From a virus (Duplodnaviria > Heunggongvirae > Uroviricota > Caudoviricetes), in the IMG/VR virus record IMGVR_UViG_2585427778_000003: 27,680 nucleotides of DNA; one strand, 5' to 3'. How positions within the stretch are numbered: the first letter of the stretch is position 1; every line of letters starts with the position of its first letter. Below, piece after piece: positions 3,967 to 10,915 of this stretch. The position numbers were made by a program, and so were the translations under genes. Under the pieces are notes generated by a model. It saw only the letters and a list, made by a program, of their open reading frames with translations, was not told the DNA's origin and did not search any database.

Positions 3967-4543
3967 TTCCAGGCACCTCCGGCCACACAATTTCCGGCGC
4001 ATCTTCCGGTTGAATACGGTTCATTAAAACGCGGTATTTTTTCCATGCGGTAAGCAGCAGTGCTTCTTCTTCGGTCGCCATGTCTAAATCTACGGCATCC
4101 TGCAATGTGGCAATGGCATCACTGGCCTGTTTAAGTAGTCTTTTCTTTTCTGCATCTGCCTCGCTGACTAATGCAGTTCGCATGGCCTCCGCATCATCCA
4201 CCCACGCCTTTCCATTCCATTTTTGCCAGGCATTAGCCGGGGCTGACGTGGTTGTCCCTTCCGGGTAAGCACCAGGCTCGGTGATTACCAGTTCATTACC
4301 GTTTTCCGTGTCAAACACTACCTCACCACGATGATCCTCACGGGAAATCCATCTTTGCTTCTCTGAATCAAAAATCGCCACAAATCCCGCTTTTATTGCC
4401 TGTGGCTTTATCGTGGTGCAGTTAGCTGGCAGTCCGGTATGTGCAGGAATAAAAGCGTCACCCGAACCAATAAATTCATTCGTATCGGAACGCAGGTTAT
4501 AAACAGTAACTGTTTGATCGGTTTCACTCATTTTAAAAGTCAT
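3956..4543 (-). CDS. Tail fiber assembly protein (Tfa / gpG-like chaperone), 195 aa
   Basis: Immediately downstream of the tail fiber gene with TAATG start/stop overlap at 4541-4545; size and conserved C-terminal region typical of Tfa proteins. Confidence 0.75.
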   Translation of the reverse strand: MTFKMSETDQTVTVYNLRSDTNEFIGSGDAFIPAHTGLPANCTTIKPQAIKAGFVAIFDSEKQRWISREDHRGEVVFDTENGNELVITEPGAYPEGTTTSAPANAWQKWNGKAWVDDAEAMRTALVSEADAEKKRLLKQASDAIATLQDAVDLDMATEEEALLLTAWKKYRVLMNRIQPEDAPEIVWPEVPGNVA

Positions 4544-6120
4544 TATGCGAGTCTCACTATGTAGTTGAATGCAATATTCTTAACGGTCGTTTCTGTGTTA
4601 CCCGACGCTGCGACGGTAATGGTGTGACTGTGTGCGCCTATTGCTACAGTGTGAGCATGAGCGCCGATACCTACAGTGTGATTGTGCGCGCCAATTCCTA
4701 CTGTGTGAGCGTGGTTTCCGGCTGATGATGAGTTAGACGCGGATCCCCAGCGTGGCACCTGATTTTGTGTGTTATTACCTGAATCAACGTAAGTTCCCCC
4801 ATAATTCCTAGAATGTACGTGTGCCCCCGTTGTATTCGTCGTTTTAGTCCCATAATCAAAAGTGCTGGCTGTTTTGGTACCGTAATCGAATGAGGATGTC
4901 GATTTCGTCCCCAGATCGGTACTGGATGCACTGGCTGTATGGGTATGGGATTTATTGCCATCATCTTCATAGGAGAGAACTGCGCGGCCGTCTGGTTTCC
5001 CTTTGATCGTCCGCCCACGCGCATCAGGAATTACGCCCGATGGATAAGCAATAGCCAGTAAAGGATATGCCGCCTTATCAAAAGATTGTCCCTGCATAAT
5101 TGCCCACCCGGCAGGTGGAATATCCGTTGACCAGGGCAGCGGCACACCAACAGGAAGAACATCACTACGGCTTAAAACGGCCAGTTCCCCCAGATCCAGG
5201 CTTTTCCTGGCTTTTGCCTTGTCGTTAACATCTGCAAGATTTGCATCTTTACGTAAAAAATCACTGCTGGCCTGCTGTTCGCTCAGGCTACCTTTTGGCC
5301 GTAAATCCGTGATGTTGCCGTCTGCATCAATGCTGGCCACCGCAAACACGTAATGCTGAACCCCGTTCTGAACGTAATCAGCAAGATTTGCTGCCACCGT
5401 GATTTTGCTCTGCACATTCCAGACGCTGGTCAGCGTTCCCGTCCAGCACACATCCAGCCAGACTTTCACTGGCTTCGTTGCCACCGTTATATTCTGGTTA
5501 GCAGCCAGTGATGCCCGGAGTCCTGCCACATAGCCCGTGCCCTTAGTGACGAAAAACTGATTTCCTGTTTTAGCGACCAGATACCCGTTACCAAAAAACG
5601 CCGCCGCGCCATAAATATCTGTATTTTCAATTCGCTGGCGTTCATCCATTCCACCCATGCGTGCAGTGAAGTCAATCTGCCAGGTTTCTGCTGGCGTATT
5701 GATGCCGGTTTCCGTCTGTGCGCCGTTGTATTCCATCAGGAAAGAACGGGTCAGGACATTCCCCTGCTGCCCTTCTGCAGTTTTCAGCTTTTGCTGGACA
5801 GGCGCATGCACAATCATCGCCAGCGTGCCGCTGGCCTTGTTAATCAGGCCGATCCAGTTAAACGAAAAATCGCCCACATCCGCCCCCAGCACAACGGAGT
5901 GCACCACGGCATTTTCATTCACCACACCTTTACGGCTGACTGCCTGCCGGTGAACAATCTGCGCGGCCGGTGGCAGTGTCTCGCTGCGATCAACGGGTTG
6001 TTCTGGATTCAGTCCCGGCACGTTCGCAAAAACAAATTCGTCCAGCAGGACAGGCTCGCCAGTGGCACCCTGCAGCGCCTTCCACTGTTCAAATGCCAGT
6101 GTGATAGCTGTCTGTGACAT
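4543..6120 (-). CDS. Tail fiber protein, 525 aa, with C-terminal HxH repeat tip
   Basis: Position between baseplate I-like gene and Tfa; C-terminus carries DYGTKT repeats and three tandem 9-aa units H-x-H-T-V-(G/A)-I-G-A. Confidence 0.75.
4621..4713 (-). repeat. 27-bp tandem repeat (about 3.4 copies) encoding the HxHTV(G/A)IGA units of the tail fiber tip
   Basis: CTACAGTGTGA recurs at 4644-4654 and 4671-4681 (27-bp period); translated repeats HAHTVGIGA / HNHTVGIGA / HAHTVAIGA / HSHT. Confidence 0.55.
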
Positions 6121-7894: not shown

Positions 7895-8220
7895 AAATCC
7901 ACCTGATATGAAAGCGTGCCAAAATCGTATGTGCTCGCGGTCACCCACAGCCGTTTCTGGCTTTCTTCACTGATTTCCACCGTTCCCGGCACAATGCGCT
8001 CATCGTTTTCAACCAGTAATTCCAGTTGTGTAAAAATATCTGCCCTCAGTGTCGGACTGCGTTCCGCAATTAATTGCGTGGCTAATCCGCTCTCAATAAT
8101 GGCGTGAATAATGTCCTGCCCGATACTTTTTCGGTTATTGCATAATTCAGGCTCATTACCGGCATTTAATGAGAAGTCACCATTCTCAATAAGCAGGTCA
8201 ATATAAAGAATCTCACTCAC
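7891..8220 (-). CDS. Baseplate wedge protein, gpW / gp25-like, 109 aa
   Basis: GTG start overlapping tape-measure stop (GTGA at 8217-8220); size and position as P2 gpW. Confidence 0.55.
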   Translation of the reverse strand: MSEILYIDLLIENGDFSLNAGNEPELCNNRKSIGQDIIHAIIESGLATQLIAERSPTLRADIFTQLELLVENDERIVPGTVEISEESQKRLWVTASTYDFGTLSYQVDL

Positions 8221-9086
8221 GCATTAAGCTCCTGCCATTCCATTAGCTGGGAGGGTGAAAGCGCTTCTTTAGTATGAAAATGCACTTCACCAATTTTACG
8301 GCTGTTATCCGTTACTGATTTAGAATTACTGCTAATTGTTTTACTGATACCACCTTTATCAACGCCTTTTAATTCACCGCCAGTTGAAAGGGTATTCGTT
8401 GTCAGTGCCGGTTGAGATTCGTTCGCCAGTGAAATATCGACGCCCGGAATTTTATTGAGTTTTCCGACAATCCAGTTCCACGATTTCAGGAACCCGCCTT
8501 TGATGGTCTGCCAGACGTTATCAAACAGGGAAACAATCCCGCTGGCCATGCCGCTTAACGCCTGTGACGGTGAAAACCCGGTCAGCAGCGCAATAAAGCT
8601 GTTCCAGCCGTCCGTGATCCATTGCCACGCAGCGGAAAACACGCCGGCAAGCCATTCCACCACACCAGCCACGGCGGTAAACGCTGCCGTATTCATCACC
8701 GCCGCTTTCACATCATCCCAGTGTTTAATCAGCAGATAACACCCGGCTGCCAGCAGAGCAATCGCCCCGATAACCAGCAGAACCGGCCAGCTCATCAGGT
8801 TGATGCCAATACCGGCCATAATCGCCGCCATGCGCACGGCCAGCAGCGTACCCCGCAGGAATTTCAGCGTCAGGTTCCACGCCACAACAGCCTTTGAGGT
8901 AATCCAGACAGTGGCCGCGTAAATCTTCGTGACCAGCGTCAGGGCGCTCCAGAGTCCCTTCAGACCCACCAGGATAAATTTTGAGACGCCCATGACAATA
9001 TTTGTCACCGCGCCCGCTGCCGCCACACCAAACAGCGCAAGCTGCACGTAACCAATCACCCGCGCAATATTGGGAAACATCTGCAT
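8217..9086 (-). CDS. Tail tape measure protein, C-terminal hydrophobic part (289 aa), same frame as the upstream N-terminal part
   Basis: Long hydrophobic/Gly-Ala-rich segments typical of tape-measure C-termini; ATG 9084-9086 lies 2 codons after the in-frame TGA at 9093-9095. Confidence 0.6.
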   Translation of the reverse strand: MQMFPNIARVIGYVQLALFGVAAAGAVTNIVMGVSKFILVGLKGLWSALTLVTKIYAATVWITSKAVVAWNLTLKFLRGTLLAVRMAAIMAGIGINLMSWPVLLVIGAIALLAAGCYLLIKHWDDVKAAVMNTAAFTAVAGVVEWLAGVFSAAWQWITDGWNSFIALLTGFSPSQALSGMASGIVSLFDNVWQTIKGGFLKSWNWIVGKLNKIPGVDISLANESQPALTTNTLSTGGELKGVDKGGISKTISSNSKSVTDNSRKIGEVHFHTKEALSPSQLMEWQELNA

Positions 9087-9092
9087 CCAGCG

Positions 9093-10184
9093 TCAGAACG
9101 TCTGCCCCATATCGGCCAGGCGGTTCAGGACCGGGTACAAAACCGGGATCAACGTCAGTCCGATCACCGTCTGAATGGCTTTAAGGATTTGTACAAAGCG
9201 ATCCCACGGCTTGACCAGCTTCCCGGCCATCTCCTGTGTACGCTTCAGCCCGTCAGAGCCGCCCAGTTCGGTGATATTACGCTGCAGTAACGCCACATTG
9301 CCGTACAGGTGTTTTATCACCGCTGAACTGTCACCAAATGCCGCATCCAGCTCCGCCTGGGCTTTCAGGTTCCCTTCCAGGCTTTTGCCGTATTTGCCCT
9401 GCAGCTTGATCAGCATTTCAGGCATGGACAGCATTTTGCCGGTGGAGTCCGTGAAGGACAGCCCCAGCTTTTTAGCTCCCTCCATCGCGCCGGTCATGAA
9501 GCCTTCGTAAGCGCTACTGGCTTCTGTTCCCAGCGTACGATTTAGCTGTCCCAGCACCGCCAGCTGTTCATCCAGCCCGACGCCGTAGTTAGTCCCGACA
9601 CCTCGCGCCCCTTCCATCAGGTCTTTGATGGTACCCATTTCGGTACCGAAGACCTTGCGCATATACACCATTTTCCCCGCCAGTTGCTCAGCGAACTGGA
9701 CTTTACCCAGCCGCGCCGCATCGGCGGAAAAGTTACCGTACATCTGCCCCATGAACTCCGCCGTGTCGGCGGATGTGGATTTCAGGGCAAATGCCAGCGT
9801 ATTAGCGACCTTCGTCACTTTCGGCAGCTCGCTGGCGGTAAGGCCGGCAATGGAAGCGTTAATGTTCTCTGTGGATTTGACGAACTCCACCGCGCTGGCA
9901 CCGTAGGTCATGCTGAACCGGAGCGCGTCACGCTGTACTGTCTTTAATGCCTGATTATCAATCCCTTTTGCGGCGGCATCATTCAGCGCGTCGTACATTT
10001 CGATAGCCGGCGATAACGCGCCTTTTATGGCCATCCCCGTACCGGCCAGCCCCAGCACGCCGCCGCCAATCTGCGAAAAGGCCGCTTTTGATTTTTCCGC
10101 AAAGCCGGTGACGCTGCCCTGCGCCTGTTTTAACGGGCGCGTCAGCTTATCAATCAGGCTTAATGTAAAATCTAACTGTTTCAT
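9093..10184 (-). CDS. Tail tape measure protein, N-terminal part (363 aa), ends at in-frame TGA
   Basis: Ala/Gly/Leu/Lys-rich, predicted helical; directly preceded by chaperone gene whose -1 frame ends on this gene's ATG (ATGA at 10181-10184). Confidence 0.65.
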   Translation of the reverse strand: MKQLDFTLSLIDKLTRPLKQAQGSVTGFAEKSKAAFSQIGGGVLGLAGTGMAIKGALSPAIEMYDALNDAAAKGIDNQALKTVQRDALRFSMTYGASAVEFVKSTENINASIAGLTASELPKVTKVANTLAFALKSTSADTAEFMGQMYGNFSADAARLGKVQFAEQLAGKMVYMRKVFGTEMGTIKDLMEGARGVGTNYGVGLDEQLAVLGQLNRTLGTEASSAYEGFMTGAMEGAKKLGLSFTDSTGKMLSMPEMLIKLQGKYGKSLEGNLKAQAELDAAFGDSSAVIKHLYGNVALLQRNITELGGSDGLKRTQEMAGKLVKPWDRFVQILKAIQTVIGLTLIPVLYPVLNRLADMGQTF

Positions 10185-10629
10185 TCCGTGCCTTTAAATG
10201 CAGTGCTGATTCCGTTAGCAACCGCTATTCGCATATTTTCCCAGTGGCGATTATCCAGCCAGATAGCAGCGGAAATATCATCCACGGAATCCTGACCGTG
10301 TGGTAAATAATGGCGACGCAAAATTAAATACTGTTCGAGTCCGTTCTGTTCAATTGCCCGGACTCGTTTTGTCAGTTTTTTACTTCAATTTCCAGTTCTG
10401 GCGCATAAAGCTCATTCACTTTTCCGGCAAGCTGGAGCGCTGCACCCGGACGTTTCAGAATGTCTTCCAGCGCTTCTTTACTTTCCGTTGCCACAATGCG
10501 TACAAGATAATTGTGCGCGGGTGCCACTTTATTATCCATCGCCATTTCGTTGATGAACTTATTATAAGCGGTCTGATTCGGTTCAAAGGTAATTTCTTTT
10601 TTGCATACAACCAGGTTAATTTTTTCCAT
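10181..10629 (-). CDS. Predicted -1 frameshift fusion product of the tail chaperone (E+E' / G-T type), about 147 aa
   Basis: Slip site GTA AAA AAC (complement of 10375-10383); -1 frame open for 62 codons with no stop until TGA at 10181-10183 overlapping the tape-measure ATG. Confidence 0.55.
10372..10629 (-). CDS. Tail assembly chaperone (role of P2 gpE / lambda gpG), 85 aa
   Basis: Small ORF immediately upstream of tape measure ending in slippery heptamer A_AAA_AAC followed by stop. Confidence 0.6.
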   Translation of the reverse strand: MEKINLVVCKKEITFEPNQTAYNKFINEMAMDNKVAPAHNYLVRIVATESKEALEDILKRPGAALQLAGKVNELYAPELEIEVKN

Positions 10630-10915
10630 AAATAACTTTCTCTCTTAAATTAATTTCATCAACAAGCGCGTTATGCCGTGCAGCACACTGCCCGTATAAC
10701 TCCAGATAAAGTGTCAGTAATTCCGCCGCGTCTTTTCCCTGCGTTCCACTCAGGCGCGGCAGCTGCGTGACGCATTTAGTTTTCAGGTTTTCCTGATAAC
10801 GTACGTTCGGTACTGGTGACGGCGTCGTTGTACATGCGGACAAAGTCATCAGACAGACACTTATTGGTAAATACCGGCTTAACCACTTCCGTGCGAATTT
10901 CACGCGGTGGCGCAT
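10616..10915 (-). CDS. Outer-membrane spanin (Rz1-like lipoprotein), 99 aa, overlapping Rz in another frame
   Basis: Basic N-region, hydrophobic stretch, lipobox LSAC, Pro-rich mature region; starts inside the Rz gene and extends beyond it. Confidence 0.65.
   Translation of the reverse strand: MRHRVKFARKWLSRYLPISVCLMTLSACTTTPSPVPNVRYQENLKTKCVTQLPRLSGTQGKDAAELLTLYLELYGQCAARHNALVDEINLREKVIYGKN

Follow-up and report, generated by a model that had tools for sequence, protein, structure and literature searches.

The tail tape-measure gene of an Escherichia coli prophage (IMG/VR record IMGVR_UViG_2585427778_000003; the whole 27,680-nucleotide stretch analysed here is called the window) is interrupted by an in-frame TGA with ATG codons close downstream. 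This raises the question of what the stop is, and a preliminary description made from the letters alone had named four possibilities: programmed readthrough, a two-piece gene, a nonsense mutation and a sequencing error.

Prophage and interrupted gene

From its sequence, the window is identified as an Evevirus/ESSI-2-like, P2-family (Peduoviridae) prophage of E. coli, integrated between raiA and pheL, with a gene order from tail fibres to integrase that matches classified Peduoviridae members and a tape-measure region with 97% nucleotide identity to that of Evevirus ev239. At the end of the tail assembly chaperone gene (10629-10372) lies the slippery sequence A_AAA_AAC, and the -1 frame is open to 10181, overlapping the tape-measure ATG. 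DUF2590 and then baseplate J lie 3' of the interrupted gene, which occupies the position of a tape measure, directly after the -1 frameshift chaperone pair and before the baseplate genes. The same order (chaperone, frameshift extension, tape measure, DUF2590, baseplate J) is found in ev239 and in Cronobacter phage ESSI-2 (Seongnamvirus). The remaining 33 genes of the prophage are all intact.

Table 1. Features of the interrupted tape-measure locus, in window positions.
Feature	Position	Strand	Remarks
Whole tail tape-measure gene, interrupted; in effect a pseudogene	8217..10184	-	655 codons
N-terminal fragment ORF, 363 aa + TGA, with PhageMin_Tail core domain	9093..10184	-	
Premature opal stop, Gly364 to stop	9093..9095	-	derived SNP at 9095; followed by C
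C-terminal remnant ORF, hydrophobic	8217..9086	-	289 aa from ATG 9086; 287 aa from ATG 9080 (GenBank call)

The first open reading frame closes with ATG GGG CAG ACG TTC TGA (TGA at 9095-9093), exactly where the preliminary description had placed its end, and the frame continues after the stop with CGC TGG ATG CAG ATG, running from the ATG at 9086 through 289 codons to a stop at 8219-8217. The codon sum across the break (363+1+2+289) is 655, the length of the single tape-measure coding sequence of the relatives, which confirms both the continuation and the total of about 655 residues that had been proposed. Pfam PF10145 matches the N-terminal frame at residues 85-284 (E 3.3e-22; 79.8 bits, cut-off 33.2), and the C-terminal frame has no Pfam match. 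The PHROG tape-measure profile phrog_28 matches both frames, at profile positions 224-591 (E 7.5e-72) and 595-725 (E 7.4e-14), respectively; because these matches adjoin across the break and the closest genome differs by one base only, the two frames are read as one gene. The tape measure is one continuous polypeptide in all relatives whereas the window has a TGA at codon 364; its copy of this family member is thus a disrupted one. The C-terminal part had been called hydrophobic and Gly/Ala-rich; it is clearly hydrophobic (mean hydropathy 0.57 vs 0.02 in the N-terminal part, with Kyte-Doolittle hydrophobic stretches at residues 373-408 and 446-489 and a maximum of 2.75) but barely enriched in these residues (G+A content 25% vs 23%).

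Origin of the stop codon

The closest genome, E. coli STK78-E (NZ_CP162185.1), has this prophage too, likewise between raiA and pheL, and differs from the window by 7 SNPs in 27,680 bases, with zero indels. Over a 2,251-base stretch of the gene region, the sole difference is the first base of the stop codon at position 9095, where C to A on the plus strand (G to T on the coding strand) turns GGA (Gly364) into TGA, so that the STK78-E gene (WP_089587598.1) is one base apart from that of the window. The A at 9095 is derived, because STK78-E, NT1F10 and the outgroup ev239 all have C. NT1F10 and related pig and pork isolates carry the same prophage at the same site, with the tape measure WP_151140366.1; STK78-E and NT1F10 both have GGA within one 655-aa coding sequence where the window has TGA. 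Each of the 12 near-identical complete E. coli genomes has the sense base here, as GGA, and the exact TGA allele had zero matches among the 5,426 genomes searched.

A single 1,968-nt coding sequence annotated as 'phage tail tape measure protein' is found in STK78-E, NT1F10, phage ESSI2_ev239 and AHB29. The gene is likewise continuous and intact in more distant comparisons, namely ev239 (97% nucleotide and 97.6% amino acid identity; YP_009877454.1 of Escherichia phage ESSI2_ev239, Peduoviridae, Evevirus), AHB29 (82%) and ESSI-2 (73% amino acid identity). Residue 364 is G in 16 and A in 116 of 132 full-length homologues, and in 15 of 15 species-representative genomes of other species, from about 10 genera, the codon is GCN and the frame is open through the site; only Gly or Ala occurs at this residue in 147 relatives. 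The surrounding motif, NRLADMGQTF[GA]RWMQ[ML]FPNIARVI, is almost invariant at its remaining positions and is kept in ev239 and ESSI-2. The codon of the relatives is GGA or GCN and never TGA, TGG or TGY, so the sense codon guessed earlier, TGG, was not the one found.

Close relatives with two conserved genes, each with its own ribosome binding site, were also looked for, and one gene was found in all. A conserved split gene had been suggested by a match to phrog_19166 (255 positions, unknown function; residues 1-245) and by a 'hypothetical protein' under the ESSI-2 match; ESSI-2 has one 685-aa gene, the additional 'hypothetical protein' is an antisense ORF, and the candidate was dismissed.

Since the stop is not conserved, programmed readthrough, selenocysteine insertion and a natural two-gene layout are ruled out. 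Among the genomes compared, the stop is a derived state private to one sub-lineage, a single SNP inside a conserved motif of a gene that everywhere else encodes a single polypeptide. The derived SNP and the GGA or GCN codons of the relatives back the nonsense mutation among the four possibilities, and an inherited mutation of this kind, that is, ordinary prophage decay in the tape-measure gene, is very probably the explanation.

The other six substitutions on the TGA lineage are nonsynonymous in 6 of 6 cases, and the long-term nonsynonymous fraction in the tape-measure gene is 0.33. This excess is compatible with relaxed constraint and does not depart significantly from the neutral expectation (P = 0.19). 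Nonsynonymous changes are generally enriched among within-clone SNPs.

Signals around the stop codon

UGA followed by C was reportedly found by Poole, Brown and Tate in 1995 to be the weakest termination signal in E. coli, and the preliminary description had laid emphasis on this leaky context. The emphasis is apt as a description of the sequence but not as to its significance: the +4 C is the one favourable readthrough feature at the site and is supplied by CGC, the codon of conserved Arg365 that was in place before the mutation, and the UGA-C context is here incidental. Folding of a 136-nt segment that begins just before the stop gives -46.2 kcal/mol vs a shuffle mean of -44.2 (z = -0.58), and hence no stimulatory structure. 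A scan of the whole window against the Rfam families, SECIS among them, gave no match at or above the gathering score. Selenocysteine insertion was rejected on the lack of a SECIS or Rfam match and of significant structure, and on the relatives' Gly or Ala, not Cys or Sec, at the site. Readthrough or selenocysteine insertion evolved for phage gene expression, to which the weak UGA-C context alone lends itself, is contradicted by these searches, by the absence of the stop from relatives at every distance examined and by the one SNP relative to the closest genome that explains it, and is almost certainly not what the locus encodes.

A two-piece tape measure, in which translation terminates at TGA and reinitiates at ATG 9086 or 9080 and both pieces build a working tail, would make use of ATGs that lie 6 and 12 nt downstream of the stop. 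Short-range termination-reinitiation occurs in bacterial operons, and the 287-aa frame is annotated by gene callers. However, neither ATG is preceded by a usable Shine-Dalgarno sequence: the best duplex before ATG 9080 is -3.1 kcal/mol at 4 nt spacing, compared with -5 to -11 kcal/mol for most real genes of the operon, and ATG 9086 has only a GGGG that is mis-spaced at 17 nt upstream. The split is absent from every relative, the break falls within the conserved motif and not in a linker, and tail length is fixed by one continuous polypeptide, all of which makes this arrangement very unlikely. The C-terminal remnant is probably untranslated or poorly translated.

Occurrence of the allele

The TGA allele was found solely through exact-protein look-ups, which located it in two protein records at NCBI and in no fewer than three unrelated sequencing runs. 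The 363-aa product is deposited as KEN41017.1 and KEN54279.1 (labelled 'tape measure protein, core region') and the 287-aa product as KEN41159.1 and KEN54278.1 ('putative membrane protein'); these look-ups gave no entry for the 289-aa product that starts at the first ATG, because gene callers take the second. Products of the allele are also present in the Logan assemblies of runs SRR14865272, SRR33896461 and ERR12020521. Every TGA contig read also has a shared derived SNP in the tube-protein gene, giving two derived SNPs in common, and private SNPs give four haplotypes; the contigs are distinguished from the window by 2-3 further sites and are therefore not the same data. An error of sequencing or assembly in the underlying record would agree with the single-base difference from the nearest complete genome and with exact-pattern scans, in which no copy was found in species-representative genomes or IMG/VR, but the recurrence of the allele in protein records and in independent assemblies with distinct haplotypes leaves this reading next to no chance of being right.

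The contig of SRR14865272, the sole one reaching host DNA, has the same integration site as the window's prophage, and its 1,784-base host flank, a short and highly conserved stretch, is identical to that of STK78-E and NT1F10. On these contigs, the two common derived SNPs and the same site and flank would fit vertical inheritance. The allele is old enough to have acquired private SNPs while other phage genes stay intact, which may hint at residual function or mark a young neutral lesion.

Consequences and comparison with known systems

The proposed course of events begins with a single spontaneous G-to-T transversion that would have changed codon 364 from GGA (Gly) to TGA. Translation would then stop at residue 363 and leave a 39-kDa N-terminal fragment without the hydrophobic C-terminal 45%. 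A tail cannot be assembled without its tape-measure protein, which also determines tail length; therefore, the prophage probably makes no or very few functional tails. It is most likely tail-defective, apart from basal UGA leakiness, and would probably still excise, replicate, fill heads and lyse. The loss of tail formation draws on general knowledge of tape-measure proteins, and residual full-length G364W protein is plausible. Near-cognate decoding of UGA by Trp-tRNA would be expected to give a little full-length protein with Trp364, no more than a few percent. Such decoding happens at UGA codons in E. coli generally. 70S ribosomes may also reinitiate to some extent at the two downstream ATGs, without Shine-Dalgarno support.

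A stronger form of this leakiness, in which the allele is functional because basal readthrough (Trp364) gives a low infective yield and the attenuated prophage occasionally spreads, is unlikely. The few tape-measure copies needed per tail would make it workable, but residue 364 takes only Gly or Ala in a near-invariant motif and a bulky Trp may not be tolerated; RF2, moreover, is generally more active in natural E. coli isolates than in K-12. The intactness of 33 of 33 other genes and the persistence of TGA in four haplotypes are what such an allele would predict, while the common derived SNPs with the identical site and flank in SRR14865272 fit vertical inheritance, and the lineage's other substitutions are without exception nonsynonymous. 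Besides the UGA-C context, the reading can draw on UGA readthrough in K-12, which rises from about 2% at 37 C to 4% at 25 C and reflects competition between Trp-tRNA and RF2 (PMC10570021). That the opal allele is attenuated and not dead, with Trp readthrough or a two-piece protein yielding a trickle of functional tails, is distinctly unlikely; if true, it would be a natural case of a lethal phage mutation being buffered by a leaky stop codon, in which a wild lineage survives and occasionally transmits.

As an inherited nonsense mutation in a prophage tape measure, the lesion is an already known kind of event. Classical nonsense (amber or opal) mutants in essential tail genes, such as P2 gene T or lambda gene H, likewise have a point nonsense mutation in the tape measure of a temperate phage with the other genes intact, and where the host has no suppressor they would be expected to produce heads but no functional tails; unlike these mutants, the mutation of the window is natural and is fixed in a wild prophage lineage. 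The textbook case of low-level UGA decoding by Trp-tRNA in E. coli is the stop between coat and A1 in phage Qbeta, where a conserved UGA yields an extended product and the phage needs both forms. The window has this basal mechanism in common with Qbeta but not the design, the window's stop being a private derived SNP in a conserved motif. The ev phages with an intact tape-measure gene were isolated as plaque-forming temperate phages (PMC6969025).

The two ORFs, deposited as a tape-measure core region and a putative membrane protein, are best read as one disrupted gene, and prophage-prediction tools that would call the element intact are probably wrong on its capacity to make infective particles. 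The locus may serve as a natural test of how far UGA leakiness rescues an essential structural gene, with no sign that the phage uses this leakiness, and it is a clean case, and one that can be dated, of how prophage decay starts, with one lesion and all else intact.

Prophage identity and gene content

The window is a P2-family prophage. In a search among 5,426 complete Escherichia coli genomes its first 25 kb gave a nearly perfect match to E. coli STK78-E, and position-by-position comparison of all 27,680 bases revealed 7 substitutions and no indels, the derived base being that of STK78-E at four sites and that of the window's lineage at three. The prophage is inserted between raiA and pheL, and the window runs from just past a phage-borne acyltransferase gene to the integrase stop codon. 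The closest named phage is Escherichia phage ESSI2_ev239 (ev239; Peduoviridae, Evevirus), with 97% identity across the tape-measure region; more remote matches are to other ESSI2_ev phages (~81%) and to Cronobacter phage ESSI-2. Infant faecal viromes were the source of the ESSI2_ev phages, isolated as plaque-forming temperate coliphages (PMC6969025), so infective particles are produced by members of this group whose gene set is intact.

Two copies of a 16-bp direct repeat, CCTTCGGGCGCGTTTT, lie just beyond the window in STK78-E, one at 4699-4714 (30 bp past raiA) and the other at 33770-33785 (between the integrase and pheL). The repeat is likely the att core, in which case the prophage would reach ~1.3 kb past the left window end and take in the acyltransferase gene, which is probably a lysogenic-conversion moron because ev239 encodes an O-acetyltransferase in the corresponding position. 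The leftmost ~1 kb of the window contains no ORF exceeding 83 aa, no Rfam match, no gene annotated in any relative, and a G+C content of 44% vs ~55% in the tail genes. A 99-aa ORF that starts with MRHRVKFARKWLSRYLPISVCLMTLSAC, carries a lipobox-like LSAC and has a weak Pfam LysC match shows features as expected of a putative overlapping outer-membrane spanin; it is unannotated in ev239, and RefSeq holds only a 77-aa version starting MTLSAC, which would be without the signal peptide.

Features of the prophage in window coordinates
Feature	Position	Strand	Remarks
Left-end region	1-1020
Tape-measure first ORF	ATG at 10184; TGA 9095-9093	minus	363 codons; ends ...ATG GGG CAG ACG TTC TGA
Tape-measure second ORF	ATG 9086 to stop 8219-8217	minus	289 codons; same frame as first ORF
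-1 frame extension ORF	10384-10181	minus	open; annotated 'DUF6890 family protein'; overlaps tape-measure ATG
Slippery heptamer A_AAA_AAC	10375-10381	minus	in last chaperone codons, just upstream of stop
Tail-assembly chaperone ORF	10629-10372	minus	ends ...GTA AAA AAC TGA
99-aa ORF	10616-10915	minus	overlaps end of Rz-like spanin gene (11108-10776)
TGA-lineage SNPs	12115 (tube S32R), 6599; 7240; 9199; 9345, 11398		S32R present in every TGA carrier

The tape-measure gene

Strand reading and ORF listing reproduced exactly the ORF and stop coordinates of the preliminary description. After the TGA, whose +4 base is C, the same frame continues CGC TGG ATG CAG ATG. The C-terminal part had been called hydrophobic and Gly/Ala-rich; the first term holds, with a mean Kyte-Doolittle hydropathy of 0.57 vs 0.02 for the first ORF and strong hydrophobic stretches at residues 373-408 and 446-489 (joined-protein numbering), and the second hardly does (Gly + Ala 25% vs 23%).

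In STK78-E, the related pig/pork isolate NT1F10, the relative AHB29 and ev239, the homologous stretch is a single 1,968-nt CDS for a 655-aa 'phage tail tape measure protein'. Pfam PF10145 (PhageMin_Tail) matches residues 85-284, in the first ORF, and the PHROG tape-measure profile phrog_28 aligns to the first ORF at positions 224-591 and to the second at 595-725, so that the match is contiguous over the break. The locus is as expected, with a tail-assembly chaperone gene upstream and DUF2590 and baseplate J genes downstream. Judged by these alignments, the two ORFs are parts of one tape-measure gene, and the window copy is a disrupted, otherwise ordinary, member of the tape-measure family. A natural two-piece gene, with reinitiation at the ATGs that follow the stop, is rejected, as relatives have one CDS and neither ATG 9086 nor ATG 9080 has a usable Shine-Dalgarno: the only G-run sits 17 nt upstream of ATG 9086, and the best anti-SD duplex at ATG 9080 is -3.1 kcal/mol, compared with -5 to -11 kcal/mol at most genuine starts of the operon.

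In the upstream chaperone gene, the canonical slippery heptamer and the open -1 frame look like the usual -1 frameshift of the G/GT or P2 E/E+E' type. Databases list the extension as its own small protein, whose start varies between entries (34, 46 or 64 aa).

Origin of the stop codon

Over 2,251 bases compared around the gene, the window and STK78-E differ only at window 9095, the first base of the stop codon, where STK78-E reads GGA (Gly364) and the window TGA. A 101-base probe centred on the stop gave exactly one mismatch in each of 12 near-identical complete E. coli genomes, none of which carries the TGA allele. NT1F10 and ev239 have the STK78-E base, and the window base is therefore the derived state. 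Residue 364 is Ala in 116 and Gly in 16 of 132 full-length homologues (>=87% identity, 655 or 679 aa), within the context NRLADMGQTF[GA]RWMQ[ML]FPNIARVI, whose remaining positions are almost all invariant; the ESSI-2 tape measure, 73% identical and encoded by one 685-aa gene, carries Ala at the equivalent residue. A degenerate DNA pattern across the stop site, scanned over one genome per bacterial species, recovered 15 loci (Franconibacter, Enterobacter, Kluyvera, Pseudocitrobacter, Erwinia, Mixta, Salmonella, Buttiauxella and others); all 15 have GCN at the equivalent codon, none has a stop, and the frame is open through the site in every one, its length being 535-770 aa in the ten loci where no locus edge interrupts it. 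These comparisons point to a codon history of GCN (Ala), then GGA (Gly, in the ev239-like subgroup), then TGA in the window's lineage only, making the TGA at codon 364, on sequence grounds, a private, derived point mutation. Since a stop results from ~3.4% of the single-base changes that this gene can undergo, such an event calls for no special explanation.

The alignment of relatives proposed in the preliminary description finds a sense codon (GGA or GCN) in the relatives compared, and the programmed readthrough raised there is rejected, since it fails on conservation of the stop, its defining test. The leaky UGA-C context is present as described, and incidental: the +4 C belongs to the conserved Arg365 codon CGC and is older than the mutation, which by chance arose next to it. 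A 136-nt stretch starting just 5' of the stop has a predicted fold no more stable than those of its dinucleotide shuffles (z = -0.58), and no Rfam family, SECIS elements included, scores above threshold anywhere in the window. With Q-beta A1, a case of programmed UGA readthrough, the window TGA shares only the basal decoding mechanism, without the conservation.

The 'Bacillota bacterium' MAG contig JAEWTL010000126.1 (4421-4452) has an enterobacterial-type tape-measure gene, with the conserved motif and a 655-aa open frame, and is probably mis-binned. In Candidatus Erwinia dacicola (NZ_MAYS01000334.1, ~4215-4246) the open frame is 535 aa, with 182 codons past the motif vs ~300 in most relatives; this may be another truncated tape measure in a degrading host genome. 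Four other near-identical variants from the same 90% cluster as the window protein look disrupted. P0013 (672 aa) ends in a different C-terminal tail, such as a frameshift into the following gene would give; P0030 and P0031 (613 aa) begin only at residue 43, and P0047 (593 aa) only at residue 63. Additional independent lesions or errors in gene calling may account for them.

Occurrence of the allele and state of the prophage

Exact protein look-ups found the 363-aa product and a 287-aa product (from the second ATG) in NCBI records KEN41017.1/KEN41159.1 and KEN54279.1/KEN54278.1, the displayed name of the 287-aa product being E. coli 7-233-03_S4_C1, and in Logan assemblies of SRR14865272, SRR33896461 and ERR12020521. 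NCBI contig JOSD01000045.1 (GCA_000713525.1) is identical to the window over 7,092 bases compared; the three Logan contigs all have TGA, each with 2-3 other differences from the window, giving four haplotypes. Unrelated sequencing runs thus share the allele, and the read error considered in the preliminary description is ruled out. All of them also have the derived S32R change in the tail-tube protein, so every TGA carrier has the same two derived SNPs.

When the 34 genes annotated in STK78-E were translated from the window, only the tape-measure gene had an internal stop. The nonsense mutation that had been listed among the possibilities is supported, as a private derived SNP. Six further TGA-lineage substitutions, a set including private SNPs of other TGA contigs (tube S32R, tail protein V40G, baseplate-J Y219N, tape-measure R329H and D280E, endolysin I18F), are all nonsynonymous, with none synonymous. 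The probability of 6/6 is ~0.001 under the long-term nonsynonymous fraction of the tape-measure gene (0.33; 16/49 differing codons vs ev239) and 0.19, not significant, under the neutral expectation of 0.755. This fits relaxed constraint after the nonsense mutation, though as a hint only, since nonsynonymous changes are generally over-represented among young SNPs within a clone.

Proposed consequence

At codon 364 ribosomes run into an opal codon, in a gene whose product is one continuous polypeptide elsewhere, and general knowledge of tape measures suggests that the main product would be a 363-aa N-terminal fragment without the hydrophobic C-terminal 45%. UGA termination is usually better in natural isolates than in K-12. 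Reinitiation at the nearby ATGs could yield some C-terminal fragment; nothing points to two pieces working. In K-12 reporters, UGA decoding by Trp-tRNA in competition with RF2 is ~2% at 37 C and 4% at 25 C (PMC10570021), so a small amount of full-length G364W protein would be expected, with Trp at a position that otherwise accepts only Gly or Ala and may not tolerate it. That this leakiness keeps the phage marginally transmissible seems quite improbable.

The finding, a natural nonsense mutation in a tape-measure gene, is not new in kind; the allele is a naturally arisen equivalent of the classical nonsense mutants in essential tail genes. The tape measure (lambda H, P2 T) is essential to tail-tube polymerisation and sets tail length, and the prophage should therefore be tail-defective yet still inducible and lytic.
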